64,000 nt of DNA from Escherichia coli (lineage in GTDB: Bacteria > Pseudomonadota > Gammaproteobacteria > Enterobacterales > Enterobacteriaceae), in assembly GCF_030013595.1 (NCBI RefSeq), contig NZ_CP122768.1; one strand, 5' to 3'. Each line of letters starts with the position of its first letter. The stretch's first letter is position 1. A program made the translations under genes and the position numbers. The notes beneath the pieces are model-generated. The model saw nothing but the letters and a program-made list of their open reading frames with translations. It was not told where the DNA came from and did not search any database. Positions 2,712-48,745 of this stretch are shown piece by piece.

Positions 2712-3160
2712 TGAATCAGTCGCTTACCCTTGCCTTTTTGATTGCCGCCGGGATTGGTCTGGTAGTCCAAAACACGCTGATGGTGCGCATCACTCAGATC
2801 TCCTCAACCATTCTCATCGCCATGTTGCTGAACTCTTTGGTAGGAATTGTGCTGTTCGTTTCTATTTTATGGTTTAAACAAGGCATGGCGGGGTTTGGCG
2901 AACTGGTGTCCAGCGTGCGCTGGTGGACACTTATACCTGGCTTGCTGGGATCGTTTTTTGTCTTCGCCAGTATCAGCGGATATCAGAATGTGGGAGCGGC
3001 GACAACTATTGCGGTACTGGTCGCCAGCCAGCTGATTGGCGGTCTGGTGCTGGATATCTTCCGCAGCCATGGCGTACCACTACGGGCGTTGATCGGCCCA
3101 ATTTGTGGCGCAATTTTACTTGTGGTTGGTGCCTGGCTGGTGGCCAGGCGCACATTTTAA
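2711..3160 (+). CDS. ydcZ: inner membrane protein YdcZ (DMT-like, multi-TM)
   Basis: 149 aa hydrophobic ORF, start overlaps mnaT stop (ATGA). Confidence 0.8.
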   Translation: MNQSLTLAFLIAAGIGLVVQNTLMVRITQISSTILIAMLLNSLVGIVLFVSILWFKQGMAGFGELVSSVRWWTLIPGLLGSFFVFASISGYQNVGAATTIAVLVASQLIGGLVLDIFRSHGVPLRALIGPICGAILLVVGAWLVARRTF

Positions 3161-3394
3161 TCAGAGGATGGTGCCACCTTTGGTTAACTGTTCGTGGCGC
3201 GCTTCCATATCTTCTTTATGCTTGCGACCGTGATGGGCGATCGCTGTGCGCAGACGCTGCTGCTGGGTGTAGCGATCTTCCCGACTTAACTCCGCGTCAT
3301 CGCTCAGGGCGATTAATAATTCGTTCATATGGGCAATGACGCTCTCTTCAATCGCGGCATCCACGCGCGCGATGACTTCATCCAGATGCGACAT
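3161..3394 (-). CDS. ydcY: small protein YdcY
   Basis: 77 aa ORF in conserved K-12 gene order. Confidence 0.7.
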   Translation of the reverse strand: MSHLDEVIARVDAAIEESVIAHMNELLIALSDDAELSREDRYTQQQRLRTAIAHHGRKHKEDMEARHEQLTKGGTIL

Positions 3395-3479
3395 ACTTTC
3401 TCCTTAGCCACTTGTGAAATTTATCGATTCATCCAAATGATATAAGTCTGCGTGGTGCCGTCAAGCCAGTGAGTAAGAT

Positions 3480-3653
3480 TTAAAACAGTGAAAACAACAG
3501 CGCCACCGGGAAACTCATCGGCCATGTTGCCCCCACCAGAAAGGCGCTTAAGAAACGGATGCGTTTCTTATCGTGAGAAAGAAACCAGGTGATAAGAAAT
3601 GCGATTGCTGCCATAACCGCATAAAAAACAAGCATGTGTTGATAGAGAGACAT
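3480..3653 (-). CDS. ortT: small membrane orphan toxin OrtT (YdcX)
   Basis: ORF 3480..3728; trimmed to MSLYQHMLVFYAV... (57 aa, two TM segments) as in recalled OrtT. Confidence 0.7.
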   Translation of the reverse strand: MSLYQHMLVFYAVMAAIAFLITWFLSHDKKRIRFLSAFLVGATWPMSFPVALLFSLF

Positions 3654-4343
3654 GTACGGGCGTCCAGCCAGATGAATAAAACGCGCGCAAATATGCGTCA
3701 TTTTTTGATGTGCATCAAGTTTTTTCACCAGTTTGAGAAAAAATCATCAACAGCAACTTGCCCTTATCCATCTTCAGAATAAGTATTATTGCGGATTTTC
3801 TTAACCCGTACTATACACATAGGGGCAATGATAAAAGGTGGCAAAAATGAATGTTTCCAGTAGAACCGTAGTACTGATAAATGTCTTTGCTGCTGTTGGT
3901 TTGTTTACTCTTATCTCTATGAGATTTGGCTGGTTTATTTGATGTAGTGATTTTGCACGCAGCACGTACTGTCAGAGAAATCAGTGCTCTGACAGTACGC
4001 AAGATCATCTCATACTCTCCAGGTTTACAACATTATCCTTAATATTTACTTCTTTTTCCTGACATCTACATTGAAATAAGTAGAAAACATCCCCCTCCTG
4101 TCGTCTATACAGACAGCTTACTGATTCAAAGGGAACCTTGTTTTCACATTTTTCTATCATCAATACTTTAGACGCGCGGGAGTCTATAAATGCTTTATAC
4201 TTTCAGGGAATAAAGTAAATATAAAAAGATGGCGTAAAGTATATGCATGGCAGGATGATTGCAACCTCCTTGATGACGCTGTCCCATTGAAATTGCAAAC
4301 CCCGCACTGGTTATCTTGCCCATTTATCATGCAGAACAGATAA

Positions 4344-13304: not shown

Positions 13305-13646
13305 ATGAAAAAGACTATCTACGCAATTATTGTTTCTGTGTGTGTTGGTGGCATCGGTGGATTTGTTTGTGGGTATGACTATTCCGATACTCAACATCAA
13401 GAGACTATCCGGTCAAATAAGGCCGAGATTAAGGATCTGAATCAGGAGATTAGCCAGTTAGAAAATGCTCTCTCACTCAAAGACAGTGAATATAGCGAGG
13501 TTTATGCAGATAAACAAAAATATTGGAAAGAGAAAGATAATCTCGTTGTTTACGGGATGAAATTGTGTAAGAGCATGAAGGACGAGCGCAGTTGTTTAAT
13601 GGAACTTGCCCTTAAAGGTAACGTGACCATCGACTTCAAAGACTAA
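13305..13646 (+). CDS. membrane-anchored coiled-coil protein (moron-like)
   Basis: 113 aa; N-terminal hydrophobic anchor IYAIIVSVCVGGIGGFVCG then coiled-coil; RBS AAGAGGATTC. Confidence 0.5.
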   Translation: MKKTIYAIIVSVCVGGIGGFVCGYDYSDTQHQETIRSNKAEIKDLNQEISQLENALSLKDSEYSEVYADKQKYWKEKDNLVVYGMKLCKSMKDERSCLMELALKGNVTIDFKD

Positions 13647-13675: not shown

Positions 13676-13921
13676 ATGAAAAAGATTATCGCTGGTATCG
13701 TTCTTGCTCTGGGTTTGGTTGGTGCTGCAAATGCCGAACAATATGTACAGGGTGATAGTGTCAAGCGTGCTGCCGTTGCACCTTCTTTAAATCAACTGTG
13801 TACTGAATTAGCACAGGTTGCCGGAGTTGGTGACGATGACGACTTTATTACTGCGTGTGTGTGGAGTCATATCGAGGATATTAATAAACGTGATGCAAAA
13901 CTAACTGGAAAGAAATATTAA
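13676..13921 (+). CDS. small secreted protein (moron-like)
   Basis: 81 aa; Sec signal peptide MKKIIAGIVLALGLVGAANA with AxA cleavage site; two Cys in mature part; RBS nearly identical to that of the preceding gene. Confidence 0.55.
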   Translation: MKKIIAGIVLALGLVGAANAEQYVQGDSVKRAAVAPSLNQLCTELAQVAGVGDDDDFITACVWSHIEDINKRDAKLTGKKY

Positions 13922-15666: not shown

Positions 15667-15942
15667 GCGGCCTAAATCGACGTATAACGAGCTAAAACAG
15701 TTAAGGGGTACAGATGTACCCCTTTTTAATTTAATTGCGTTAGGCAGCGTAAGCAAGTTTCATAGTAGTTTCCTCTAAAATAATAAGTTCACTACTATTT
15801 ATCAGAGAAAATTGTCTTACTATTGCATTCTCTATCTGGATGTGGGTATAGGCGGGATTGAATACGGCAAAACTGAAACATTCCACTACTGCAATAAATC
15901 ACTAAACAATATAAAGAATATTGCAAGTGTGGAGTGGAACTA

Positions 15943-16254
15943 ATGCAAGATATTAAAATTCATTTTCAAGATTACAGTTTCGTTAAGGTTGATTGCTCTC
16001 CTTCTATCGGAATGGAATTAAGAGATTATTTCTCGTTTGAGGTTGAAGGGGCTAGGTTTAGCCCCCGTTACAAGTATTCTGGCTGGGATGGACGAATAAG
16101 ACTGTTTACGCATGAAAACACCCTACCAATTGGACTATTAAAAACGTTGGGTGTCTTCGTTAAAAATATGGGCTATTCAGTCTGGATTGACCCCAGATTG
16201 CTTGAGAAGGAAGATGTAACCAAAGACGCGATTAATGAATGGATTGATTCCTTA
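15943..16254 (+). pseudogene. UvsW-like SF2 helicase, N-terminal fragment (interrupted by IS1)
   Basis: MQDIKIHFQDYSFVKVDC... runs in frame into the IS1 left end; the frame continues on the other side of IS1. Confidence 0.7.
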
Positions 16255-16309
16255 GGTGATGCTGCCAACTTACTGATTTAGTGTATGATGGTGTTTTTGA
16301 GGTGCTCCA

Positions 16310-16585
16310 GTGGCTTCTGTTTCTATCAGCTGTCCCTCCTGTTCAGCTACTGACGGGGTGGTGCGTAACGGCAAAAGCACCGCCGGACATCAGCGCTATC
16401 TCTGCTCTCACTGCCGTAAAACATGGCAACTACAGTTCACTTACGCCGCCTCTCAGCCCGGTACGCACCAGAAAATCATTGATATGGCCATGAATGGCGT
16501 CGGATGTCGCGCCAGTGCACGCATTATTGGCGTTGGCCTCAACACGATTTTCCGCCACTTAAAAAACTCAGGCCGCAGTCGGTAA
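16310..16585 (+). CDS. insA: IS1 InsA
   Basis: 91 aa [43 protein letters not shown]..., zinc finger plus HTH. Confidence 0.9.
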
Positions 16586-17007
16586 CCTCGCGCATACAAC
16601 CGGGCAGTGATGTGATTGTCTGCGCTGAAATGGACGAACAGTGGGGCTACGTCGGTGCTAAATCACGTCAGCGCTGGCTGTTTTACGCGTATGACAGGAT
16701 GCGGAGGACGGTTGTGGCGCACGTCTTCGGTGAACGCACTCTGGCCACACTGGAGCGTCTTCTGAGCCTGCTGTCGGCCTTTGAGGTCGTGGTATGGATG
16801 ACGGATGGCTGGCCGCTGTATGAATCACGCCTGAAGGGAAAGCTGCACGTTATCAGCAAGCGTTATACTCAGCGCATTGAGCGGCATAACCTGAATCTGA
16901 GACAACATCTGGCAAGGCTGGGACGGAAGTCACTGTCGTTCTCAAAATCGGTGGAGCTGCATGACAAGGTCATCGGGCATTATCTGAACATAAAACACTA
17001 TCAGTAA
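16504..17007 (+). CDS. insB: IS1 InsB reading frame (expressed as InsAB' by -1 frameshift)
   Basis: 167 aa frame overlapping insA 3' end; DDE transposase core. Confidence 0.85.
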
Positions 17008-17022
17008 GTTGGAGTCATTACC

Positions 17023-18210
17023 GATTCCTTAGAAGTGTATTCCGGTAGCAATAAAATCAATCCTTATTGGTATCAAAGGGAGGCAGTCTTTCAGGGTATC
17101 CACAATCGCCGTAGAATGCTGGTTCTTCCTACCAGTGCCGGAAAGTCATTGATTGCTTGTATGCTGTCTCGTTGGTACTTAGAGAACTACACCGGAAAAG
17201 TGTTAATCATTGTTCCGACTACATCGCTAGTGGTTCAAATGAGGGATGATTTCATCGATTATAGGCTATTCCCTTATGAAGCAATTCATACAATGATGAG
17301 TGGTAGCGGGAAACATCCGGGAGACAGGTTAATCACGGTTAGTACCTGGCAATCAGCTTGCAAGATGCCTCCTGAATGGTTCCGACAATATGGAATGTTG
17401 ATAGTTGATGAATCGCATAAGGCTAGTGCCAAAAATATTACCAATATCATCAATGGAATGAATCATTGCCAATTTAAGATCGGCATGACTGGTTCCCCGA
17501 AAGAATCAAAGTGCCATTTAATGCAGTATGTCGGGCTTTTCGGTGATATTTCTAAGATCGTGAGTATTGACCGCCTGATGGAAGAAGGGCAGGTGACAAA
17601 ACTGAAAATTAACTGTCTTTTCCTTCGTTATACAGATGAGGAATGTAGCGCGGTTAAGGGGCGAGAATATGCGGAAGAGATCAAGTATATTACGTCTAAC
17701 CCACGACGAAATAAGTTTGCTTGTAATTTGGCGCTAAAACTAGCTAAGAAGGGCGAAAACGTATTCCTGATGTTCCGCAATACTAAGCACGGAAAACTTA
17801 TGTATGATGCGTTACAGAAGGTACACGACAAGGTTTATTATATTGACGGTGGAGTTAAGACAGAAGAACGTGATGAATTTAAGAAAATGGCGGAGGGTGA
17901 CACCGGGATCATTTGCGTTGCATCCTATGGTGTGTTCTCTACTGGTGTTTCAATTAAGAATTTGCATCATGTTATTTTCGGTCATCCAGTGAAGGAATCA
18001 ACTATCGTTCGTCAGAGTATCGGTCGTGCATTGCGTAAACATGGTTCTAAGGATATTGCAACGGTCTGGGATCTTATAGATCATCTGTGTATATTCGGTC
18101 GTAACGGAAAAGTCAAGCATAAAAATTATGCGGTAAAACATGCACTTGAGAGAATCCGCTATTATCTAACCGACAAGTTCAGCTATGCAACTAAAACAAT
18201 TGCTATATAA
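17023..18210 (+). pseudogene. UvsW-like SF2 helicase, C-terminal fragment
   Basis: Walker A LVLPTSAGKSL, DExH box IVDESHKA, helicase C-terminal motifs VASYGVFSTGVSIKNLHHVIFG and GRALRKHGSKDIATVWDL; in frame with the N-fragment across the IS1 target duplication. Confidence 0.7.
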
Positions 18211-18211
18211 C

Positions 18212-18240
18212 AAAAAAGCGCCCACTAGAGGCGCTTTAAT
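18212..18240. terminator. bidirectional rho-independent terminator between convergent helicase and lysis/structural operons
   Basis: stem AGCGCC/GGCGCT with 7-nt loop, A-run upstream and T-rich tract downstream. Confidence 0.45.
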
Positions 18241-18241
18241 T

Positions 18242-18595
18242 TTATCCATTCCATCGTGATTTTTTCGATCTGGAATCGATATGCGTAAAGGTTTTATATT
18301 TGCCTAAGCCGTATTGAGTAGGATATTTCCCATCAAGATAAGCATGGACAATATCAGGGGAGACACCCTTGATCACAATGTCAGCCGCACGGCCTCGAAC
18401 GTGATAGCTGTTGGTTGCACCGCCTACATTCTTGTTATGAGTCGGGCAACGGTTGCCACTGTTAATAATCACTGGTTTACCGAAGTGCTCTCGTACATCC
18501 TCAAGAATTACCAGTAATTCAGCGTCGATTGTATCATAATCACATTTTCCGCATTTACATTTAAATTCCTTGCGAGAAAAATGCTTACTTAACAT
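18242..18595 (-). CDS. endolysin, peptidase M15 family (L-alanyl-D-glutamate peptidase type)
   Basis: 117 aa; zinc-binding signature SYHVRGRAADI ... FTHID typical of VanY/M15 phage endolysins. Confidence 0.75.
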   Translation of the reverse strand: MLSKHFSRKEFKCKCGKCDYDTIDAELLVILEDVREHFGKPVIINSGNRCPTHNKNVGGATNSYHVRGRAADIVIKGVSPDIVHAYLDGKYPTQYGLGKYKTFTHIDSRSKKSRWNG

Positions 18596-18604
18596 ATTAC
18601 CCCC

Positions 18605-18952
18605 TTAGATCATTTCGAAGATATAACCAATAAAGCGCATACCCTTGATATAATAAGGAGCAGTGCCTACACACACCGCGCGTGCATCGCCCAGACAGTT
18701 AAAGCTATAAGGATTAACTACATCGACTTCTTGCCCTACACGAAAACGATATTTAGGACGTTTAGCCAATGTAGCGACACAAAACACGGTCCCTTTTTCA
18801 TGATCGCGGATACATTCTTTATATTGTTTATGTTTAACTCTCTTCGCCTCAAAATCATGTGTCATGGATTCTGGGCTAATGCCATTGATAAAAATACCGG
18901 AAAGCTGGTCGACCGGATAAGTAGGAAATTCAGTAAAAATATTTTTAGCCAT
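18605..18952 (-). CDS. hypothetical protein (lysis cassette)
   Basis: 115 aa ORF tightly packed between endolysin and next gene. Confidence 0.45.
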   Translation of the reverse strand: MAKNIFTEFPTYPVDQLSGIFINGISPESMTHDFEAKRVKHKQYKECIRDHEKGTVFCVATLAKRPKYRFRVGQEVDVVNPYSFNCLGDARAVCVGTAPYYIKGMRFIGYIFEMI

Positions 18953-18990
18953 GTTATACCCCCATAAGATTCTATGAGGGTATTTATTGA

Positions 18991-19674
18991 TTAAACGTAT
19001 TTCATGCGCGATTTAATGTGCTTATTGATGTTTTCAAGCATCATTGCTTCGTTGCTTTCCCACGATCCTAGCGTCGAATAACGAGTAGAAATTTTATCCG
19101 ACTTAACGGCAACAATTCGCTTACTCTGTTTCTGTATGCGTTTCTCTAAGCGACGTTTTGCCACCGCCGATCCATTCTTAGCGCGTTTGGTTCGGGATTT
19201 CTTAGGCTTGTACTTCTTCATGATAAAAGTCCCTTCCTGGTTCTCTACCTTGATGAAGTTGCCATTTTCGATGTTACGCATCATCTTACCGCCTTTGATG
19301 GCCTTAATGTTCCCGTGGGCGTCTAAGACCTTACCGTTGGCAATTGGCACTAGCTTATTGATTTTGCCACCATCGAAATAGTGTTTCAGATAGTCATCCT
19401 GACTGCCGATCTTCTTGTCCTTATCCCTTGCGCCCTTGATGAAGATTTGGTGTCTCGTCCCTGAACGGTTCTTGTAGTTGGTATTACCTACAGCTTGTTG
19501 AGTCCAGCGAGTAGGTCTATCAACATTCTTGTTAATCTTCTTCTGGAGTGCTCTGGAAGCAAAGATCGCCCCTTCCCCTATCGCCTTTTCGAATGTATCG
19601 GTTGCTTTATCAGACCATTGGCGTAACGCTTTCTTAGTCCTTAGAGCGTTTCGTTTATTGGTACTGGTTGCCAT
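18991..19674 (-). CDS. hypothetical highly basic protein
   Basis: 227 aa, Lys/Arg-rich throughout. Confidence 0.45.
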   Translation of the reverse strand: MATSTNKRNALRTKKALRQWSDKATDTFEKAIGEGAIFASRALQKKINKNVDRPTRWTQQAVGNTNYKNRSGTRHQIFIKGARDKDKKIGSQDDYLKHYFDGGKINKLVPIANGKVLDAHGNIKAIKGGKMMRNIENGNFIKVENQEGTFIMKKYKPKKSRTKRAKNGSAVAKRRLEKRIQKQSKRIVAVKSDKISTRYSTLGSWESNEAMMLENINKHIKSRMKYV

Positions 19675-19675
19675 G

Positions 19676-19846
19676 TTAGCCCCCTAATAACGAAAAGACC
19701 CCCGCCAGTGTCCTTAGCAATTGTTCATCCACGGTCATAGCCGGGAGTTCAAGCCCAAAGGACGTTAGCAGAGGTCTAATTGCTACGTTATAAGTGAGGG
19801 CGACAATCAAGAGATAACCAAAATATTTCTTAAGTTTATTCTTCAT
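19676..19846 (-). CDS. small transmembrane protein (holin/spanin-like candidate)
   Basis: ORF 19676..19918 trimmed to MKNKLKK...; hydrophobic segment YFGYLLIVALTYNVAI; start codon choice uncertain. Confidence 0.35.
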   Translation of the reverse strand: MKNKLKKYFGYLLIVALTYNVAIRPLLTSFGLELPAMTVDEQLLRTLAGVFSLLGG

Positions 19847-19865
19847 ATATTCACCCCTTTTATTA

Positions 19866-20144
19866 TTATTTTTGTCTGAGTAAATCGATAACTTGGTCAA
19901 ATTTAGCGTCCATCGCAACCACTTTCTTTTCTATACCGTGAAGGGTTTGTTCCATGCGATAAACTCTCTCGGCGATCTGGTCGTGGTTATTCTGCATTGT
20001 TTCAAACTTCTGATTAAACAATGCATCATTGGACTCTAATTTCGACAATCTATTTTCTGTGGCTAATTGATTTCGGTGAAGTCTCCATAATCCACCACAA
20101 ATTAAGGCGATAACACCGATACCGCCATATATAATTTCAGTCAT
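19866..20144 (-). CDS. membrane-anchored coiled-coil protein (holin or i-spanin candidate)
   Basis: 92 aa; N-terminal TM IIYGGIGVIALICGGLW followed by coiled-coil. Confidence 0.4.
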   Translation of the reverse strand: MTEIIYGGIGVIALICGGLWRLHRNQLATENRLSKLESNDALFNQKFETMQNNHDQIAERVYRMEQTLHGIEKKVVAMDAKFDQVIDLLRQK

Positions 20145-20249
20145 TACGCCCCCGATATTTTTATATAGTTTAATGGCAAAATTATTTAGATAAAAATAAT
20201 CCCGCCTAACTCAAAAGAATTAAGCGGGATTTATTATTAAAATTAAATT

Positions 20250-23200
20250 TTAAGAAACAGTAATACCGGTAGTTGCTTTTTTAGTTACCATTACCGTTAA
20301 ATCACTGATCCATGTGCTAGGCGTCCAGTTGTTGATTGCGCTTGATTGCACTTCAAAGGTCAAGGTCACAGCACCCTTACCCGCTGGCATATCAATAACA
20401 CCTGAGTAAAGACCAGTATTACCGCCATACGCCCTATTATACAACTCTGACCCATTCTTACGAACAATCAGGCGACAGGTGTCGTAATAGGTATTATTGT
20501 TCGACCCTTCACGCGCTCGCAATCCACCAAAACTAACAGCCGGAATAACGATTTGACGATCGAACTTGTGATCATCTTCAACGCGAACAGTGACCGTACC
20601 TTGTGGATAGCCAGCATAACCATTATCAACGTTAACATCACGATGCGGGAACTTACGTCCAATCACCTTAACGAAATCACCCTTAACCTGAGTAGCTTCA
20701 AGCATACCCTTAATAACACAGCTAGAGTTAATCGTGACGTTGTTCAGAGTACCAGAATCGGCAGTGATATTACCTTTAACGGTTGCATTCATGAACGTAG
20801 CGGACCCGTTCTTGTTGATATGCCATCCGGTAGATCCGTTCCAGTCGGAAGACTGGATATAGTTACCAATTTTAGCGTTATCAATTGCGCCATTTACAAT
20901 CTTGGCGTTGGTGATCGCGCCGTCTTGGATTTTCGCTGAATTGATCGCAGCATTGCCAATTTTAGCCGTGGTGATACTAGCATCAGTAATCTGTGCTGAT
21001 CCGATTGAGGCATTACGAATCATGGCACTGTCGAGATAAACCTTGTTACCTTCGATACCAAACGGGCATACTTCCGATCCGTTCTGTGGAGCTACCGCGA
21101 TTTTATCAGCATTAAAGATGATTCTCGTCGGTTGCGCCGGATCGTTGGTTGCGCTCATGTGAATACCAGCCACGCGACCATCTGCATTAACTGCCAGATT
21201 ATATTTGCTGTTAATGGTTCCTTTCAAAGCATCGATTTTTACATCTGCTTCCTGATTCACGCCAGCAATCTTGCCATCCATTTCTACCCGAACTTGATCA
21301 ATCTTGCTTGCGCTTGCTGCCTCACTGGTAGCAATTGCTTGTTTCAGGGTAGTAGCAGATGCGCTGACTTCGGATTTAATATCGCCTTTCAGTTCAGCTT
21401 TAACCTGATCAATCTTAGTGGAGCTAGCTTGCTCGCTGGTAGCAATCAGACTCTTTAAGGTATTGGCTGAGGCTTGGACCGTCTGCCCTGTTTCGGTAGT
21501 GATTTGCTTATGCATTGCATCAATTTTAGCATCGGCATTAGCGCCAGCTTGAGCAATAGCATCCGCGATAGTTTCATCTAAGCGGTCTTGTAAACCAATC
21601 AGGTCTTCCAGTGCTTCTTTGTCCTGATCGTCCCAGCTAATTGTAGATCTCATTTGCATGAAATAAGGTTCAGACCAAACAGCATCATCCATACCGAAAA
21701 TATCGTAGTGAGCACCACGGATATAATAATCACCGTCAGCAATATCAAAGGAAGTATGGCTAACACTATTCGTGCTTACTGCCCTTGCATCGGAGAAAGT
21801 GTTATCGGTTGCATACTGGATGATTGACCCTGCATAATCATGTTCTACGTCATCTGCCCAGCTAACAAACACACTATTAAAGCCACCACGCGCACTAAAA
21901 CCTTTCATTGGCTTATGTTGTGGGTTGATAGCCACTAAACGCGCTGGGGCGCTCTCTGAGTTGTTATAGCCCTTAGCCGATACTTCTACCGTCAGTTGAC
22001 GCGAAAGGCCGTTAAACTGGTTCATATCAAGCGTATAAGTCCATGATTCAGGATCGCGGGTACGGTACTGAATAGACTTACCAGCCTTGTTAGTCACCTT
22101 GATAATGTATGCTTCAAACAGGTCACTAAACTTGTTAGTTTCACCGTTGATCTCAACATCTAATTGTTGCTGATTTTCCCATTCGATAATCAGATCATTA
22201 CCTTCGAAAGTTCCTGGCGTGCTACCCTGATTTTTGATTCGAATAACCGGAGTCGGCAATTCATAGGTAACAGTCGGATTCTGGTTAATCAGTTCTACCC
22301 ACTCGGAACGAGCAATAATACCGAAAGCACAAACTCGGTAATCATAAGAGCGATCTTTCGCCAGTGCATTGACACTGAAAATTTGCTGTGAAGTCTGTCC
22401 CAGCTTAATCCAGTTAGGCGATCCGCTTACACGGTAATCAATCTGGAAACCATAACGGTTAAAATCTTCCGGTGCATCCCATGTCAAAGTAACGTTTTTA
22501 CCGTAAATCGTCTCACCAGTTGCCTTAATCCTGAAATTAGTAGGCTTCTGTACTGTCATTGAATCCGGTAAACCACTTGGTCTATTGTCTGGAGTTGCCG
22601 CATAGTTCAGGTCAGTATAAACCTGAGAATTATATTCTGTGGCGGTGATAGTCATCATCCCAGCAATACCAGAATCAATCGAGCGATCAATTGCAGTAAT
22701 ACGCCATAAGGAATTATTCAGCTTCAATTCATCATAGGTTACGCTGATAACGTCCCAAACTTCGGCAGTGAATGCGTCAGTAGTCATAAAGCTGATAACC
22801 TGAGTGATACGAGATTTATTTCGCTCAATGCTCGCGAGTTTATCAATCTGATCTTTAGACTTAACAAAACGATATTCAATATCTTTAGCGATAATTCGAC
22901 CATCTTGACGAATAGTAGCATCGTTTTCAGCATCAGCCGGATAACGTAGCATTTGCTCTGAATAGTCAATTGATGGTTCTTGATACATCGCGTTAATGGT
23001 ATTGAAATAACCGTTAGTGCCACCTGTTTTCAGTGATACCTTACCCATCATGATATTGTCTTCATTGAAGGTATGCTTAACAATATCAGGAGCATCCAGT
23101 TTCAGCGTAATACGTCCAAAGGATTCGAACATCACCCCGCCGAAAGTCTGCATAAGATTAGTCAAGTTCTCTTTAAAGCTGGCGTTCGGATCACATGCAC

Positions 23201-24026
23201 CGTTTGAATGTAGATCCATCTGGCGTACTTGTTTACGTACTTTCAGGAATGAATCAACGTTAATGTTTTCAATTGGTACAGATAAGCCATATTTTTCATT
23301 TGTTAGGTAGTGGAAAATCTGGTCCACGCCGTTAGTGCTAGCCTCAATAGCATTAGTTTCAAGGTTACGAATCTTTAAGCCCATAACATCGACTGCTACC
23401 TGGCTATTTGGCTGGAGAATATCAACACCAGCAGCAAGAGATTTGTCATCACGACGTAACACAATACACATGGTTGCAATACCATTGCCTTTGTAGTTGT
23501 CGTTCCAGTCTGATCCTAAATGACGTTTTGCCAGTGACAAAGCGGTGTTAGGATTCTTACCCGTGCGAAACTCAACTTCTAAAACTTTCCGGTATTCTTC
23601 TTTAATGTTGCCTTTGTCCAGTACACCATCACGGATCGTCATGTTCTTACCAACAAGAACATTTTTGTTATCGATAAACAGTGCTTTGTAATGGTCGATT
23701 TCACCCTCGGCAATTGCGAAGATTTGCACTAACTTATTGTTTTCTTGCTTAGAAATTGCTTTGTAAACGCAGATTGCACCCGTGCGGGTAGTACCAAAAA
23801 GAACGGGTAATACTGTCTTCGGATCGTTTGATGTTCCTAGTGTCACCGCATTATCTGGGCTTTGTACTTTCGGTGTTTTTGGTGCGCCTACAGTGGAAGC
23901 GATCAAGGTCATTGCACCAGCAGCCATACCGATAGCGACTGCGGTCATAACCGAAAATGTTGCGGCTGCCGCCATCCCCGCCGAAGCACCAGCAATAACC
24001 GCGCCTACCAATACTTCAAATCCCAT
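20250..24026 (-). CDS. central tail fiber / host-specificity (J-like) protein
   Basis: 1258 aa; hydrophobic N-terminus, large beta-rich body and C-terminal Ser/Thr-rich fiber region; positioned after the distal tail genes. Confidence 0.65.
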   Translation of the reverse strand: MGFEVLVGAVIAGASAGMAAAATFSVMTAVAIGMAAGAMTLIASTVGAPKTPKVQSPDNAVTLGTSNDPKTVLPVLFGTTRTGAICVYKAISKQENNKLVQIFAIAEGEIDHYKALFIDNKNVLVGKNMTIRDGVLDKGNIKEEYRKVLEVEFRTGKNPNTALSLAKRHLGSDWNDNYKGNGIATMCIVLRRDDKSLAAGVDILQPNSQVAVDVMGLKIRNLETNAIEASTNGVDQIFHYLTNEKYGLSVPIENINVDSFLKVRKQVRQMDLHSNGACDPNASFKENLTNLMQTFGGVMFESFGRITLKLDAPDIVKHTFNEDNIMMGKVSLKTGGTNGYFNTINAMYQEPSIDYSEQMLRYPADAENDATIRQDGRIIAKDIEYRFVKSKDQIDKLASIERNKSRITQVISFMTTDAFTAEVWDVISVTYDELKLNNSLWRITAIDRSIDSGIAGMMTITATEYNSQVYTDLNYAATPDNRPSGLPDSMTVQKPTNFRIKATGETIYGKNVTLTWDAPEDFNRYGFQIDYRVSGSPNWIKLGQTSQQIFSVNALAKDRSYDYRVCAFGIIARSEWVELINQNPTVTYELPTPVIRIKNQGSTPGTFEGNDLIIEWENQQQLDVEINGETNKFSDLFEAYIIKVTNKAGKSIQYRTRDPESWTYTLDMNQFNGLSRQLTVEVSAKGYNNSESAPARLVAINPQHKPMKGFSARGGFNSVFVSWADDVEHDYAGSIIQYATDNTFSDARAVSTNSVSHTSFDIADGDYYIRGAHYDIFGMDDAVWSEPYFMQMRSTISWDDQDKEALEDLIGLQDRLDETIADAIAQAGANADAKIDAMHKQITTETGQTVQASANTLKSLIATSEQASSTKIDQVKAELKGDIKSEVSASATTLKQAIATSEAASASKIDQVRVEMDGKIAGVNQEADVKIDALKGTINSKYNLAVNADGRVAGIHMSATNDPAQPTRIIFNADKIAVAPQNGSEVCPFGIEGNKVYLDSAMIRNASIGSAQITDASITTAKIGNAAINSAKIQDGAITNAKIVNGAIDNAKIGNYIQSSDWNGSTGWHINKNGSATFMNATVKGNITADSGTLNNVTINSSCVIKGMLEATQVKGDFVKVIGRKFPHRDVNVDNGYAGYPQGTVTVRVEDDHKFDRQIVIPAVSFGGLRAREGSNNNTYYDTCRLIVRKNGSELYNRAYGGNTGLYSGVIDMPAGKGAVTLTFEVQSSAINNWTPSTWISDLTVMVTKKATTGITVS

Positions 24027-28845: not shown

Positions 28846-29352
28846 TTAAGAGATTTTCAAAGTCTGCTTAGTGCCAGTCTTCTTAATGTTGGTAAGGAAA
28901 GCAGCCGGAGGATTGCTTAACCAGTAATAATGAAAACCACTTTGCATACTGTTATAAGGAACAGTGACAGCAGCACCACCCAAATTAACGGTTATATTCC
29001 CCGCTCTACCGTTCTGGAGATATACAGCCATAGTAGGAGTACCACCATTGAATTGACCAACGATAACGCCAATCAGACGCCCTACGCCCACGTTTTCGGG
29101 GTTCTCCATAGATCCTTTACCGCGCATGTCAGTTACTGGATAGTTTGAAGCAGTTACACCCCAGTTATTACCCAATGAAGTAGACCACGCAGCAGTAGCT
29201 ACAACCGTATCCATACCACGACCACACATCGCGCTCATATTACCAGGTACACCAACTTTTAACGCTTGCATAGCCTCACGCATCCATCTCTTGCCAGTTA
29301 CAGAAACAGCCGATGATCCGACCCAGCCGGGCTTATTAACGACATTTGCCAT
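28846..29352 (-). CDS. hypothetical tail protein
   Basis: 168 aa, RBS GGAG before the ATG, tail module context. Confidence 0.45.
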   Translation of the reverse strand: MANVVNKPGWVGSSAVSVTGKRWMREAMQALKVGVPGNMSAMCGRGMDTVVATAAWSTSLGNNWGVTASNYPVTDMRGKGSMENPENVGVGRLIGVIVGQFNGGTPTMAVYLQNGRAGNITVNLGGAAVTVPYNSMQSGFHYYWLSNPPAAFLTNIKKTGTKQTLKIS

Positions 29353-39427: not shown

Positions 39428-41332
39428 TTAGAACGATGTTACCCAGCTACGGCCTCTATTTGGGCGTCTGACGATGTTTTGACGTTGTGGTCGTGTGATT
39501 GGCTTAGTTTCTTCGATTTGCTCGTCAGATTGCGATTTAGGAGCTTCTACAGGTTCTTCTGGTTCACGGTTCAAACTATCTTTGATGGCTTCGAGTTTTT
39601 CCCATGACATTTTATTGAGTACATGACGAGAAGCAGCATAGGAATAAGCCAGGCAGTCCAACGCTTCGTTTCGTGTTTGTCCAACTTTTACCCAACGTGT
39701 GGTATTACCCTGCCGTTTCAACTGTTCAGAAAGCAATTGCTCGCAATAGTCATCAGGAACGTCACCAATCTGGAAGACAGTGTGAGGATCGCCATCTCTC
39801 AAGTTCCGGTTAATCATTTCACGGATCATCGTTTTAAGGTTGTTTACGCCCAGAATTTTAAGGGTAAAACCACCCGTTCTTGTGTCTTTTACCGGAAGGA
39901 TTGGTGCATCAACATTGCTTGCGCCTTTAATGGCGGTTAGATTTTGCCACCGACTACAGAATCGATAGATCACGTTTGTAGCTCGTCCGTTCGATGAGTC
40001 CACGAAAGCAGATAACATCGGGATTCGTTCACCGGATCGGGTATAGAATTTAGCTTTCAGGAAGTTGTAAAGCTGGTTATATGCTGGTGATTCGTGGCGT
40101 TCGCAGTTCACATCATAGAATGATCGGTGATCAACTACGCATAGCCCTTTACGAGAAATACCCAGCAAGGTAGATTCCAGACGGTCTTTTTGCTGGTCAA
40201 CTCCACCTACCAGAGCCAGTACATCATCAGGAATATTGTCTAGGCTAATATCAGTTTTCAGCGTTTCTAATTCGTCGGCTGTGCGGTCTTCGTTAAGATC
40301 ATCGAAGGTTTCACCGAGGACTGTATTGTAGAACGTTGCCAGGGACATATTCGCGTAGCTATCAGCAAAGTCCACCACACACGCACGGATAGAACTAAAC
40401 GGAGACATAAGGCGGTTAGCATGAAAACCGATTACTTCCGCGTTTGGTTCGGTGGCGACCCATTCTCCCTGTCCAACAGCACGTAGGCGATCACCCTCGG
40501 TCCAATCGGTTTCACATTCAGGGCAACGGTAAACGGCTGTATCTGGGTTGGGTAATGATTTACCGTTAATCGTATGCCAATCGAAATGTACGTTACTCCA
40601 TTCCATTACGTGCTTGTGTCCGCAATGCTGGCAAACGACATGATATTTTCTCTTATCCGAGAGTTCCCATTGTTGGTTAATCGCCCCATCACGAGCGGTT
40701 GGAGTGGAAGCAATTACGATCCTTGCATCTTCCCCGAAAGTGGTTGCGCGTTGTTCCGCTAGTTGGATCGGGTTCCCTTCGTCTGACTCATCAGCCGCAT
40801 CAACTTCATCAAGAATAATCAAAGGGAGTGTTTTACCGCGAAGATGTGACGGACTATTCAACGACATGAAATACATAAACGATCCGTTACGAAGCTGAAT
40901 AATCGATGAGTTGTTAACGGCATTGCGATCTGATTTGTCGGTGATCATCGCCTTTAATTCTGGTGTTGCCTCTAATACTGGCTTCACCTTACCAGCGATC
41001 CAAGAATTTAGTTCTCTAACGTTACTTTGCAACACCCCAATATTAGTAGGGTTACTCGCGATCCGATGGAAGATAATTCCGTTAAGAATCATGGTCTTAC
41101 CCAACTGTGCCGAACATTTAAACACAATTTTTCTACGGTCTTCGGTGATCGCGTCCATCATTCCACGTTGGAAGGGATGCAATTTAATTAGCGATCCGGC
41201 TTTAACACCATCGGTTGCAACTACATTAGCCTCTACCCATTCGCTAGGTTTCATCGTTTTAGGTGGGCGAATTGCCGCAGAGATATTTTTAAGAATCTTT
41301 TTTAATTTTGCCTTGTTCGAAATCAGTTTCAT
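39428..41332 (-). CDS. terminase large subunit (GpA-like)
   Basis: 634 aa; Walker A-like FKCSAQLGKTMILNG, acidic DE-rich nuclease region at C-terminus. Confidence 0.8.
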   Translation of the reverse strand: MKLISNKAKLKKILKNISAAIRPPKTMKPSEWVEANVVATDGVKAGSLIKLHPFQRGMMDAITEDRRKIVFKCSAQLGKTMILNGIIFHRIASNPTNIGVLQSNVRELNSWIAGKVKPVLEATPELKAMITDKSDRNAVNNSSIIQLRNGSFMYFMSLNSPSHLRGKTLPLIILDEVDAADESDEGNPIQLAEQRATTFGEDARIVIASTPTARDGAINQQWELSDKRKYHVVCQHCGHKHVMEWSNVHFDWHTINGKSLPNPDTAVYRCPECETDWTEGDRLRAVGQGEWVATEPNAEVIGFHANRLMSPFSSIRACVVDFADSYANMSLATFYNTVLGETFDDLNEDRTADELETLKTDISLDNIPDDVLALVGGVDQQKDRLESTLLGISRKGLCVVDHRSFYDVNCERHESPAYNQLYNFLKAKFYTRSGERIPMLSAFVDSSNGRATNVIYRFCSRWQNLTAIKGASNVDAPILPVKDTRTGGFTLKILGVNNLKTMIREMINRNLRDGDPHTVFQIGDVPDDYCEQLLSEQLKRQGNTTRWVKVGQTRNEALDCLAYSYAASRHVLNKMSWEKLEAIKDSLNREPEEPVEAPKSQSDEQIEETKPITRPQRQNIVRRPNRGRSWVTSF

Positions 41333-46968: not shown

Positions 46969-47253
46969 TTATTTAGTCTGTTTGAAAACGAACGTTAAAA
47001 ATTCGATTAAGCAATATACCCAAAGTACGGTCAGCATCAAATGCATAGCAATAGTTGGATGGAAGTTAAAAAGTGTCATACTAACTAGGCCAACAATATA
47101 AGAAATTCCTTCGACAATTAACGCAAGGCTAGCAAATGCAACAAACGCACCTAAGAATAATTCGCCTCGTTCTTTCGGTTCGGTTCCGAGTTTATAAGCA
47201 GAGATAGCAGCCAGAATAGTAATGATGACAGCATAGGTAATAAAAGTAGCCAT
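46969..47253 (-). CDS. small inner-membrane protein (2-3 TM)
   Basis: 94 aa, almost entirely hydrophobic. Confidence 0.5.
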   Translation of the reverse strand: MATFITYAVIITILAAISAYKLGTEPKERGELFLGAFVAFASLALIVEGISYIVGLVSMTLFNFHPTIAMHLMLTVLWVYCLIEFLTFVFKQTK

Positions 47254-47345: not shown

Positions 47346-47903
47346 TTAAGACACATCAAATTCATCGTCTTCTTCTGGTTCTTGTTCTTCCGGTTCATCC
47401 ATTAATGGTAATTCTTCTTCCTCGTCTTCTCCCAAATCTGCATTTTCGAACAAGTCCCCTACTTCATTTAAACGACGCTCGATGATCTCCCTTAGCTTAT
47501 TCTTTAATGTTTTCTGGTCATTGGCAGATTCGAGAATTTCTAGGGCATCGATCGTACAAATCTGCAAAATAGTCTGCTTCACTTTCCCGCAATATTCCGC
47601 TAGTTGCTGTTCTACATAACCGACAGGAATCAGGAGGTTCATTTTTTCCTGATTCTCTCGTTCGGCTGCATCTGCCATTGCTCTTTCTCTGCGGAGACGT
47701 TCTTGATCAATCGCTTCTTTGATTGAAGTTTGTTTAAGTGGGTTAATTACGTTCTTTAGCACCCAATCGCAACCTTCCTTTGCCGGAACACGCCTCTTAT
47801 TGGTATTGTAAGGTAGTCCCCTTTCTAACCATCGCTTACCGCCACCATTCAATGTATAGCCATATAAACGGGAAATTTCTGTAAGGGTTAATTCTTCTTT
47901 CAT
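47346..47903 (-). CDS. wHTH DNA-binding protein, Nu1-like (terminase small subunit candidate or regulator)
   Basis: 185 aa; N-terminal LTEISRLYGYTLNGGGKRWLERGLPY resembles the recalled lambda Nu1 LADIFGASIRTIQNWQEQGMP...GGGKG region; acidic C-terminal tail. Confidence 0.4.
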   Translation of the reverse strand: MKEELTLTEISRLYGYTLNGGGKRWLERGLPYNTNKRRVPAKEGCDWVLKNVINPLKQTSIKEAIDQERLRRERAMADAAERENQEKMNLLIPVGYVEQQLAEYCGKVKQTILQICTIDALEILESANDQKTLKNKLREIIERRLNEVGDLFENADLGEDEEEELPLMDEPEEQEPEEDDEFDVS

Positions 47904-48394: not shown

Positions 48395-48745
48395 TTATTG
48401 GGGTTTACAACATTTAGGTTTGCCAATTCGTCTGGCTAACTCTTGCTGAGTGATTTCTGACTGTAAAAAAGCATTTAACAGCAATACCTTAGAGGCGACA
48501 CTCAAAGGCACTTCAATAAAGTGATCGTGACTATTTAATGGCGAAGGTAACGGGATAAGCTCGTTATCTTCAAAATAAAAATCAAATGCGGTCAGTAAAG
48601 CATCTTTTGCCGCTTCCATCGCTTCAGCAACTGTTTCGCCCTGGGTCAACGCTTCAGGGATATCCACAAAAGAAACCATATAACCGCCTTCCGGCGCGGG
48701 TGTAAGAGTGACGGGATAACGCATAATTTCGACTGTCTCTCGCAT
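48395..48745 (-). pseudogene. hicB: hicB 5' part (truncated antitoxin, toxin-binding domain retained, DNA-binding domain replaced by 5 phage-derived codons)
   Basis: matches recalled HicB up to ...ARRIGKPK then diverges to CCKPQ* at the attR core. Confidence 0.8.
48413..48421. repeat. attR core (TTTAGGTTT)
   Basis: identical to 12559..12567. Confidence 0.5.

Follow-up and report, generated by a model that had tools for sequence, protein, structure and literature searches.

The five-gene unit and its conservation

In the 64,000-nucleotide window analyzed here, which comes from E. coli contig NZ_CP122768.1, a temperate and uncharacterised siphovirus prophage is integrated in ycdX. Five closely packed genes lie on the minus strand between its tail-tip gene and a terminator: orf92, orf56, orf227, orf115 and an M15_3 endolysin gene (Table 1). 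A Shine-Dalgarno sequence, GGGG(G), is found 5–8 nt upstream of every gene in the unit. The original prediction described four ORFs between the structural genes and the M15 endolysin, and all four are present on the minus strand where they had been placed. Each of the two proposed small membrane proteins has one clear hydrophobic segment, but the second is 56 aa long and not 80 aa. The 80-aa form, which uses a TTG start, was dropped in favor of the 56-aa ATG form based on the PGAP call of a 56-aa protein in a 98%-identical genome and on homologues of 54–57 aa.

Table 1. Features of the five-gene unit and its borders (window coordinates)
Feature	Coordinates	Strand	Remarks
Tail-tip gene, J-like	20250-24026		Upstream neighbour of the unit
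Intrinsic terminator hairpin, 15-bp stem and T-run	20198-20231	-	Between tail-tip gene and orf92; upstream unit boundary
orf92, 92-aa membrane protein	19866-20144	-	
orf56, 56-aa membrane protein	19676-19846	-	ATG after AAGGGG
orf227, basic 227-aa protein	18991-19674	-	Probable tail completion protein
orf115, soluble 115-aa protein	18605-18952	-	
Endolysin, Peptidase_M15_3	18242-18595	-	Pfam and PHROG matches
Bidirectional intrinsic terminator	18215-18237		Between endolysin gene and convergent helicase gene; downstream unit boundary

The four ORFs are real genes and not chance ORFs. The five-gene order recurs across E. coli genomes and diverged prophages. It was found in 54 of 5,426 complete E. 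coli genomes (about 1%) and also in Salmonella, Providencia and metagenomic prophages, in which the identity of the orf227 homologue is only 25–37%; strains 2017.18.04CC and UTAK-14 are examples with an intact copy of the prophage. Homologues of orf92, orf56, orf227 and orf115 occur together in 13 loci, and the block is kept while the endolysin is replaced non-orthologously, being M15_3, M15_4 or a GH24 lysozyme. A GC-rich hairpin with a T-run stands at the position of the upstream terminator in relatives L004, L005, L006, L007 and DCP80, with differing stem sequences, and hairpins also follow the endolysin gene in L004–L007. Among 50,697 phage records no near-identical DNA was matched for the locus; tblastn found no match for orf56 in these records, and for orf227, orf92 and orf115 either no match or the DCP80 record only. 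A literature search on the RefSeq accessions returned no paper.

The endolysin and the two membrane proteins

The endolysin matches Pfam Peptidase_M15_3 (1.1e-27) and the endolysin family PHROG 894 (1.9e-45). It is of the Zn D-Ala-D-Ala carboxypeptidase / L-Ala-D-Glu peptidase type and carries the H-x6-D motif and the C-terminal His (SYHVRGRAAD, FTHID). Its sequence has no signal or SAR segment and shows it to be cytoplasmic and unable to cross the inner membrane alone. For a soluble endolysin to act, a partner must permeabilise the membrane, and no candidates other than orf92 and orf56 lie nearby. Both fit the holin trait of a small protein with at least one transmembrane domain (TMD) that is encoded near an endolysin. 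Topology prediction gives one TMD in orf92 (N-out/C-in), one in orf56 (N-in) and none in orf227 and orf115.

The expectation that none of the four ORFs resembles a classical holin or spanin was borne out, as an HMM search of all four in Pfam (E ≤ 1), PHROGs (0.01) and NCBIfam (1) gave no holin or spanin match. As with classical holins (classes I–III), Rz/Rz1 and u-spanins, the genes adjoin the endolysin, and two of them, orf92 and orf56, encode small membrane proteins; the differences are the lack of any HMM match, of a charged tail in orf56 and of a lipobox ORF. A scan of 12.4–48.6 kb for a lipobox with Cys, using all starts in all frames, returned ORFs that were all antisense or embedded and had no Shine-Dalgarno sequence, and a lenient lipoprotein scan of 18.2–20.3 kb returned no candidate, nested or separate; these scans were simple and rule-based, not LipoP. 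A pair on the plus strand (13305-13646 and 13676-13921) was considered as a spanin pair and rejected, as the second of its proteins carries an SPase-I signal but lacks a lipobox. The prophage lineage is apparently spanin-less, as far as such motif scans can tell.

The N-terminus of orf56 (N-in) is rich in Lys and is followed by one TMD (KD19 1.56), in which Asn20 and Pro25 are conserved, and by a short hydrophobic C-terminal helix that ends in GG. Its net charge is +3, and the absence of Cys excludes a lipoprotein. The only family match is a marginal one to PHROG 2024, of unknown function. The orf56 stop codon is 1 nt ahead of the orf227 start, and in every lineage the orf56 homologue abuts or overlaps the orf227 homologue, the two genes being translationally coupled. 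We regard orf56 as the best holin candidate of the unit, although it lacks the charged C-terminal tail that is typical of holins.

In orf92, an N-terminal TMD (about residues 4–22; KD19 1.77) is followed by a ~70-aa coiled-coil C-terminal domain. The predicted N-out/C-in orientation agrees with a positive-inside pattern in all 15 aligned homologues; all homologues have an acidic or neutral N-terminus and a basic W(R/K)xH(R) junction. All 60 database relatives (60/60) are labelled 'hypothetical', and Pfam yields coiled-coil noise alone, with DUF2730 (PF10805) absent at E ≤ 1. The family HMM scores 12.4 bits against Mu gp25, co-linear over residues 14-84 versus 15-86, a score that was reached by 0 of 2,000 segment shuffles and by 3 of 2,000 shuffles in which the TMD was kept. 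A faint precomputed DUF2730 match exists for the homologue in L024, hhalign gives a probability of 10%, and the similarity to Mu gp25 falls below every family threshold.

The Mu gp25 releasin is a 99 aa protein with an N-out/C-in topology, 73 cytoplasmic residues and a basic junction motif (PMC9239132). Releasin genes are described as lying within about 5 genes of the endolysin (PMC9239132), and orf92 is three genes upstream of it. The two proteins are alike in size (92 versus 99 aa), in their N-out/C-in orientation with few periplasmic residues, in the ~70-residue helical cytoplasmic domain, in the basic motif at the membrane–cytoplasm junction and in a gene position few genes from the endolysin. 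They differ in that orf92 has no Pfam DUF2730 match and its phage is neither Mu-like nor transposable, whereas the original releasin study, among sequenced active phages, found the family in Mu-like phages only (PMC9239132). In addition, the Mu releasin frees a SAR anchor while the endolysin here is soluble, so that the demonstrated activity cannot apply as such. Another protein to which orf92 can be likened, by description and not by sequence, is LambdaSo Lcc6, a 65-aa TMD protein that acts at the holin level and is needed beside holin and endolysin, and which shows that accessory lysis factors exist; Lcc6 differs in being encoded far from the lysis genes, and its partners are a pinholin and a SAR endolysin. 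An i-spanin function was rejected for orf92, as its coiled coil is predicted to be cytoplasmic rather than periplasmic and it has no lipoprotein partner. We consider orf92 a candidate lysis accessory protein or holin partner, one that is built like the Mu releasin and occurs outside Mu-like phages. With five small genes, one of them for a soluble endolysin, and with neither a recognisable holin nor a spanin, the unit offers a tractable E. coli lysis system, and lambda complementation of these genes could widen the known set of membrane-disruption proteins.

The basic protein orf227 and its neighbour orf115

The description of orf227 as a Lys/Arg-rich protein was accurate: 55 of its 227 residues are K or R (24.2%), giving a net charge of +36 and a pI of 10.6. 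It has no hydrophobic membrane segment. The K/R clusters are dense at residues 153–186, and a variable K/R-rich insertion at about residues 83–200 is the least conserved part of the alignment and rich in indels. Lambda gpZ, a tail completion protein, has a composition of 24.0% K+R, a net charge of +37 and a pI of 12.0. Known proteins of this type include lambda gpZ (Minor_tail_Z, PF06763, PHROG 27), HK97 gp10 (PF04883), SPP1 gp16.1 and 80α gp51 (PDB 9mu2 chain P); the curated models that define them are the two Pfam families and PHROG 27 or 5.

By itself, orf227 has no Pfam match, a weak match to PHROG 1924 (1.4e-3) and a score of 1.4 bits with the gpZ HMM. At the family level, nine of 15 members match PHROG 1924 'minor tail protein' (best 2.4e-33), one matches PHROG 27 'tail completion or Neck1' (5.5e-3) and the member P0034 matches Pfam Minor_tail_Z at E 0.11. 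The Rhodobacter phage protein RcCronus gp44, whose 'minor tail protein' label is an annotation and not virion proteomics, matches PHROG 1924 at 2.8e-57 and aligns with the orf227 family in hhalign with a probability of 96% (E 4.5e-9). Lambda gpZ matches PHROG 27 (3.2e-69) and also PHROG 1924 (1.9e-4), co-linear at the N-terminus. The gpZ HMM scores 17.3 bits with RcCronus gp44 and 13.1 bits with P0034, co-linear in both, against a maximum of 10.9 over 1,700 shuffles. Hhalign of the orf227 family against the single sequences of HK97 gp10, lambda gpZ and T5 p143, and against a shallow 8-sequence gpZ alignment, returned nothing; orf227 is under every curated threshold for Minor_tail_Z and HK97-gp10, and the direct profile–profile comparison is negative.

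The orf227 model structure, predicted by AF2 with 15 diverse homologues, is an α/β fold with a long bent N-terminal helix, a short helix, a β-hairpin and a C-terminal helix. This topology agrees with the tail completion protein fold as described for gp51 of 80α, in which the helices and hairpin bind the tape-measure N-termini (PMC11661146). In a Foldseek search of the model against BFVD, the matches include 'HK97-gp10 putative tail-component' (probability 0.87) as well as 'Type I neck protein'; against the PDB the search returned nothing. A PDB sequence-profile search with orf227 gave adenovirus pre-protein VI at E 0.13, a chance match only. In a scan of 10 structural-module ORFs, none was recognisable as another tail completion protein. 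Based on the family matches, the modelled fold and the composition, orf227 is most likely a tail completion protein of the lambda gpZ / HK97 gp10 / 80α gp51 type. Such an assignment would turn a strikingly basic, unnamed prophage protein family into probable gpZ-type tail completion proteins, and it weighs against the role in lysis that was first considered for the basic protein.

The position of the gene is unlike that of known tail completion genes, as it does not lie between the head-closure and the tail-terminator or tube genes; it sits after the tail-tip gene in the endolysin unit, coupled to a 56-aa membrane protein. In RcCronus the orf227 homologue is not accompanied by the other three genes and is located apart from the endolysin, and the 7.4 kb of L010 that were examined showed no endolysin. 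In RcCronus and L020 the homologue is upstream of terS, and in L020 it remains next to an orf56-like gene and a lysozyme gene. Together with the coupling of orf56 and orf227 in every lineage, this adjacency may mean that orf227 functions with the membrane protein, a point against the tail completion assignment. If orf227 is indeed of the gpZ type, neck and tail completion genes can sit amid lysis genes, which makes position alone a poor guide to function.

The orf115 protein is soluble, with no hydrophobic segment and a net charge of +4, and in this prophage lineage its gene is always directly downstream of the orf227 homologue. It falls in 17 database clusters, all 'hypothetical', and has no conserved catalytic-type residues. 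One option, which we consider unlikely, is that orf227 and orf115 form a structural pair similar to lambda Z–U, in which orf115 would be a divergent tail terminator, neck or tail-tip protein beside a tail completion protein and lysis would be served by orf92 and orf56 only. No match for orf115 was found in Pfam, PHROG, NCBIfam or PDB sequences (the PHROG scan included 12 homologues), and its HMM is unlike lambda gpU, HK97 gp11 and T5 p142 (≤1.5 bits, within the null). Moreover, RcCronus, L010 and L020 carry an orf227 homologue with no detectable orf115 homologue. Comparisons of the orf115 HMM with FII, Hc1, Mu gp24 and Mu gp26, and hhalign of orf115 with RcCronus gp20, were also negative.

Models for the late unit

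The idea of a non-canonical lysis cassette survives in part: there is an endolysin-adjacent, terminator-bracketed and conserved unit, but the ties of the orf227 family to tail completion proteins would take one of its genes out of lysis. Rather than a four-gene lysis machine, the cassette is more plausibly a mosaic late unit in which one or more virion genes are set among lysis genes. We propose, with a probability of roughly 0.55, that the five genes form the final transcription unit of the late genes on the minus strand and that this unit serves both lysis and, through one or more of its genes, the virion. According to this proposal, orf56 and orf92 would be the membrane components that release the endolysin, with orf56 the likelier hole-former and orf92 a membrane-tethered cytoplasmic coiled coil of the Mu gp25 / Lcc6 class that may act as partner or timer. 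The orf227 protein, by homology, would be built into the virion at a very low copy number, where the DNA end would be contacted by its positive surface and the tape-measure N-termini would be bound by its helices and hairpin, as in the solved structure of 80α gp51. The orf115 protein would be a soluble partner, either structural or lysis-related, and with no spanin the rupture of the outer membrane may be dispensable, mechanical or due to an unrecognised factor. The location after a conserved terminator may also result in low expression, which would suit lysis proteins and a protein that is needed in few copies per virion (one in 80α). If this plain reading holds, the locus is a regular late region of a phage, some parts of which lack annotation.

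Another hypothesis, to which we give little credence, is lysis with neither a classical holin nor a spanin: a DUF2730-like, membrane-tethered orf92 together with orf56 would release the soluble M15 endolysin, and orf115 or a moonlighting orf227 would breach the outer membrane. If true, cytoplasmic endolysins would have a new release system of the holin/releasin type, and outer-membrane disruptors would gain a third class.

It is also very doubtful that all four ORFs form one lysis module in which the cationic orf227, perhaps with orf115, replaces a spanin by destabilising the LPS-rich outer membrane, acting like an oversized disruptin or CAMP, while orf92 and orf56 permeabilise the inner membrane. 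Several observations are in line with this possibility: no spanin or lipoprotein ORF was found in the prophage, the block is its own terminator-bounded unit, it travels with three endolysin types, and orf56 and the K/R-clustered orf227 are translationally coupled. [quoted passage not shown] Like gp28, orf227 is strongly cationic and is encoded near lysis genes in a phage with no recognisable spanin. However, gp28 is a hydrophilic, all-helical protein of 56 aa with a net charge of +7, while orf227 is four times this size, is predicted to be a folded α/β protein and has tail-annotated homologues. Disruptins are described as shorter than 80 aa, hydrophilic, with a net charge of at least +4, an amphipathic helix and no TMD (10.1101/515445), by which none of the three candidates qualifies: orf227 has 227 aa, orf56 is suitably short but hydrophobic, with a TMD and a charge of +3, and orf115 has the charge of +4 but 115 aa. 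Further points against a lysis role of orf227 are the ties of its family to gpZ and to tail completion proteins, the homologue that lies apart from the lysis genes in RcCronus, the lack of an endolysin in the 7.4 kb of L010 examined, the poor conservation of its K/R-rich stretch, and the example of lambda gpZ, which is equally basic with no role in lysis.

Returning to the mixed late unit that we prefer, its assignment of orf92 and orf56 to lysis also has an alternative. Superinfection exclusion genes are often located after host-specificity genes, as cor in phi80 and N15 and llp in T5. That orf92 and orf56 are membrane morons of this kind, separated from the tail genes by the terminator, with the real holin elsewhere (for example a 94-aa ORF with three TMDs at 46969-47253), is improbable, as that ORF is 27 kb away and has no charged tail or PHROG match, Cor and Llp, unlike orf92 and orf56, are lipoproteins, a search for a sigma-70-like promoter of the orf92/orf56 unit gave none, and the two genes share a terminator-bounded unit with the endolysin gene and in all relatives vary in position together with it.

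Layout and transcription of the late genes

The window is E. coli chromosome with a ~36 kb prophage at roughly 12.4-48 kb, as judged from an annotated, 98%-identical prophage locus (L001), whose annotation places the insertion site in ycdX, beside a large serine recombinase. The late genes are on the minus strand (table below) and, as the original prediction noted, four minus-strand ORFs (orf92, orf56, orf227 and orf115) lie between the tail-tip and endolysin genes; with the latter they are termed the cassette. The second ORF was also recognized correctly, but its length is 56 rather than 80 amino acids (aa), as indicated by the AAGGGG Shine-Dalgarno preceding its ATG, the PGAP call in L001 (56 aa) and the homologue lengths (54-57 aa). 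All five cassette genes have GGGG(G) ribosome-binding sites. Intrinsic terminators flank the unit on both sides and are kept at the same positions in relatives, with differing stem sequences. No sigma-70-like promoter stands out for the unit; presumably, therefore, either upstream transcription reaches it (read-through or antitermination) or its promoter is activator-dependent.

Features of the prophage, in window coordinates
Feature	Coordinates	Strand	Remark
HicB-like antitoxin	48395-48745	-	PHROG 497, 3.7e-28
terS-like	47346-47903		PHROG 57
94-aa ORF	46969-47253	-	~three hydrophobic segments
Terminase	39428-41332	-	late gene
Portal; 668-aa capsid protein; tube; tape measure; distal tail protein		-	late genes
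Major-tail-protein-like, 277 aa	33598-34431	-	PHROG 158; C-terminal fibre/Ig-like part
Tail fibre, 1,153 aa	30059-33520
Major-tail-protein-like, 158 aa	29527-30003	-	PHROG 158
gp38-like adhesin	28846-29352
J-like tail-tip protein, 1,258 aa	20250-24026	-	late gene
Intrinsic terminator	20231-20198	-	15-bp-stem hairpin + T-run, immediately after tail-tip gene
orf92	19866-20144	-
orf56	19676-19846	-
orf227	18991-19674	-
orf115	18605-18952	-
Peptidase_M15_3 endolysin	18242-18595	-	last late gene; Pfam 1.1e-27, PHROG 894 1.9e-45
Bidirectional intrinsic terminator	18237-18215		downstream end of unit
UvsW-like DEAD/DEAH helicase	15934-18210		split by IS1
IS1	16256-17022		insA 16310-16585, insB 16504-17007
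81-aa protein	13676-13921	+	SPase-I signal (ANA/EQ)
113-aa protein	13305-13646	+	N-in TMD + coiled coil

The tail module, in which the fibre gene splits two major-tail-like genes and the adhesin gene comes after them, has an order that is unusual for a siphovirus. The antitoxin gene is located at the prophage's far edge. The IS1 insertion shows a target duplication of ~9-10 bp; as the helicase gene is unbroken in L001 (496 aa), the window copy of the prophage may be partly defective.

The basic protein and its neighbor orf115

One question that is raised by this region is why a strongly basic protein (orf227; K+R 24.2%, net charge +36, pI 10.6) is encoded beside an endolysin. The original prediction placed all four ORFs in a lysis cassette; this is plausible for orf92 and orf56 together with the endolysin, whereas the likeliest reading of orf227 is a gpZ-type tail completion protein that has been displaced, with a charge that is typical of that family. 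We estimate the probability of a tail completion or virion protein at about 0.65-0.7. The prototype of such proteins, lambda gpZ, has essentially the same composition (K+R 24.0%, net +37, pI 12.0) and matches both PHROG 27, 'tail completion or Neck1' (3.2e-69), and, N-terminally and co-linearly, PHROG 1924, 'minor tail protein' (1.9e-4). PHROG 1924 is also the sole, weak PHROG match of orf227 itself (1.4e-3); it is matched by 9 of 15 family members (best 2.4e-33), and PHROG 27 by one (5.5e-3). A full-length member of PHROG 1924 (2.8e-57) is gp44 of Rhodobacter phage RcCronus, whose 'minor tail protein' label is an annotation rather than a proteomics result of the RcCronus paper, and hhalign joins gp44 to the orf227 family at 96% (E 4.5e-9). 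An HMM built from eight gpZ homologues scored gp44 at 17.3 bits and P0034, a family member, at 13.1 bits, both co-linearly, whereas the best of 1,700 composition-preserving shuffles reached 10.9; enterobacterial members scored only at background. P0034 also has a sub-threshold match to Pfam Minor_tail_Z (E 0.11). Alignments by hhalign of the family with single sequences or a shallow gpZ alignment were negative.

The AlphaFold model of orf227, from a 15-sequence alignment (pLDDT 68, pTM 0.58), runs from a long bent N-terminal helix through a short helix and a beta-hairpin to a C-terminal helix, with these elements arranged around a low-confidence insertion of ~100 residues. The same topology is described for the 80α tail completion protein, a monomer within the neck whose positive surface faces the DNA end and which binds tape-measure N-termini, and in lambda gpZ the apex holds an additional, inserted domain (PMC11661146). 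Foldseek was negative against the PDB and returned a weak list from BFVD, including an HK97-gp10 tail component (probability 0.87) and a Type I neck protein. No other tail completion protein was recognized among the other structural ORFs scanned in the prophage. A lysis-linked role for orf227 has a low probability, kept alive by two facts: orf227 and orf56 are tightly coupled in translation, and orf56-like, orf227-like and lysozyme genes stay together in metagenomic locus L020.

The soluble orphan orf115 lacks conserved catalytic-type residues; searches of Pfam, PHROGs, NCBIfam and PDB sequences gave no match, and comparisons with tail terminators and Mu gp24/gp26 showed no similarity. It may act in lysis, or be structural and pair with orf227.

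The membrane proteins and lysis

The endolysin, orf92 and orf56 plausibly form a non-canonical lysis set. It was correctly stated that nothing here resembles a classical holin or spanin. A strong hydrophobic segment occurs once each in orf92 and orf56, and in none of orf115, orf227 and the endolysin. As the endolysin lacks an export signal, on present evidence orf92 or orf56 must supply the holin function, and we favor orf56 as the hole-former with orf92 as its partner. The N-terminus of orf56 is Lys-rich (N-in), its TMD contains an invariant Asn and Pro, and its C-terminal helix is short and hydrophobic and terminates in Gly residues; the protein has no family match, no Cys and no charged C-terminal tail. 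The 94-aa ORF just downstream of the terS-like gene, with neither a PHROG match nor a charged C-terminal tail, is either a membrane moron with no link to lysis or, as a weak alternative to orf92 and orf56, a holin candidate.

In orf92 and all its homologues, 3-6 N-terminal residues, acidic or neutral, precede a TMD, which is followed by a basic W(R/K)xH(R) junction and a ~70-residue coiled-coil tail. From this charge pattern the positive-inside rule predicts a cytoplasmic coiled coil; this rules out an i-spanin. The architecture matches that published for the releasin gp25 of Mu, a DUF2730 protein of 99 aa with N-out/C-in topology, four residues in the periplasm, 73 in the cytoplasm and a basic motif at the junction (PMC9239132). 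The orf92-family HMM aligns gp25 co-linearly at 12.4 bits, a score reached by 0 of 2,000 segment-preserving and 3 of 2,000 TMD-kept-intact shuffles, with two other TMD-plus-coiled-coil proteins at ≤3.4 bits, and the homologue in locus L024 has a precomputed 'faint' DUF2730 match. Yet, as Pfam reports no DUF2730 for orf92 and the hhalign probability is only 10%, we regard orf92 as a protein of releasin-like architecture that may be remotely homologous to gp25, not as a family member. The SAR-release activity demonstrated for gp25 cannot apply directly, because the endolysin is soluble; according to the Mu study, pairs of a DUF2730 protein and a non-SAR endolysin also occur, in which the former has an unknown role (PMC9239132). 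Another recently found lysis accessory with a TMD and a cytoplasmic tail is Lcc6 of LambdaSo.

Scanning every start codon in six frames across the prophage gave no credible lipobox ORF, and neither did a lenient scan inside the cassette, which was run because nested Rz/Rz1 genes are found in LambdaSo. [quoted passage not shown] By the criteria of the same source, the four ORFs include no disruptin. Next to the recombinase gene, the 113-aa protein has an i-spanin-like architecture and is followed by a secreted 81-aa protein; the latter has no lipobox, so the two are not a spanin pair by definition. Neither matches a PHROG, and they are probably lysogeny-expressed morons.

Relatives of the cassette

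Among 5,426 complete E. coli genomes, 54 carry the cassette-region DNA, in every case on the chromosome; it had no high-identity match in any phage record. Profile and word-index protein searches recovered only narrow families: six close clusters and ten further matches for orf227 (eight of them full-length distant relatives), 17 clusters for orf115 and 60 for orf92, all 60 labelled 'hypothetical'. Distant orf227 homologues (25-37% identity) on Salmonella, Providencia and metagenomic contigs keep the gene order of tail tip, ~92-105-aa, ~54-57-aa, ~181-227-aa and ~101-117-aa genes and endolysin, the last varying by lineage (M15_3, M15_4 or GH24 lysozyme). HMMs of the four families confirmed their co-occurrence in 13 loci. 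The orf227 family also occurs alone: upstream of terminase genes in RcCronus (gp44) and L020, and beside an HNH-like ORF in locus L010, where the contig stops before any packaging gene. The RcCronus lysis genes are sited apart from gp44: between the terminase and portal genes (2871-3657), endolysin gp03, with a hydrophobic N-terminal SAR-like segment, and gp04, a 77-aa two-TMD protein, look like a pinholin/SAR-endolysin pair.

The same cassette arrangement is present in the GenBank record 'Escherichia phage DCP80' (PQ671644.1, 1-32000), including unannotated genes for a 153-aa orf92-like (22472-22933) and a 57-aa orf56-like protein (23411-23584). This 141-kb record, classified as T4-like Gaprivervirus, starts with a ~26 kb siphovirus head-tail-lysis module homologous to the window prophage (capsid 43% identical) and then turns T4-like (motA at 30.8 kb), as though two phages had been assembled into one chimeric sequence. 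Homing-type nucleases seem to be gained and lost in the cassette region: in strain 2017.18.04CC (L001, 16621-17796) a GIY-YIG nuclease gene separates the recombinase gene from the helicase gene, the window prophage lacks this nuclease gene (15750-15840), and endonuclease VII genes lie inside or beside the cassette in DCP80 (22959-23426) and L020 (872-1315).
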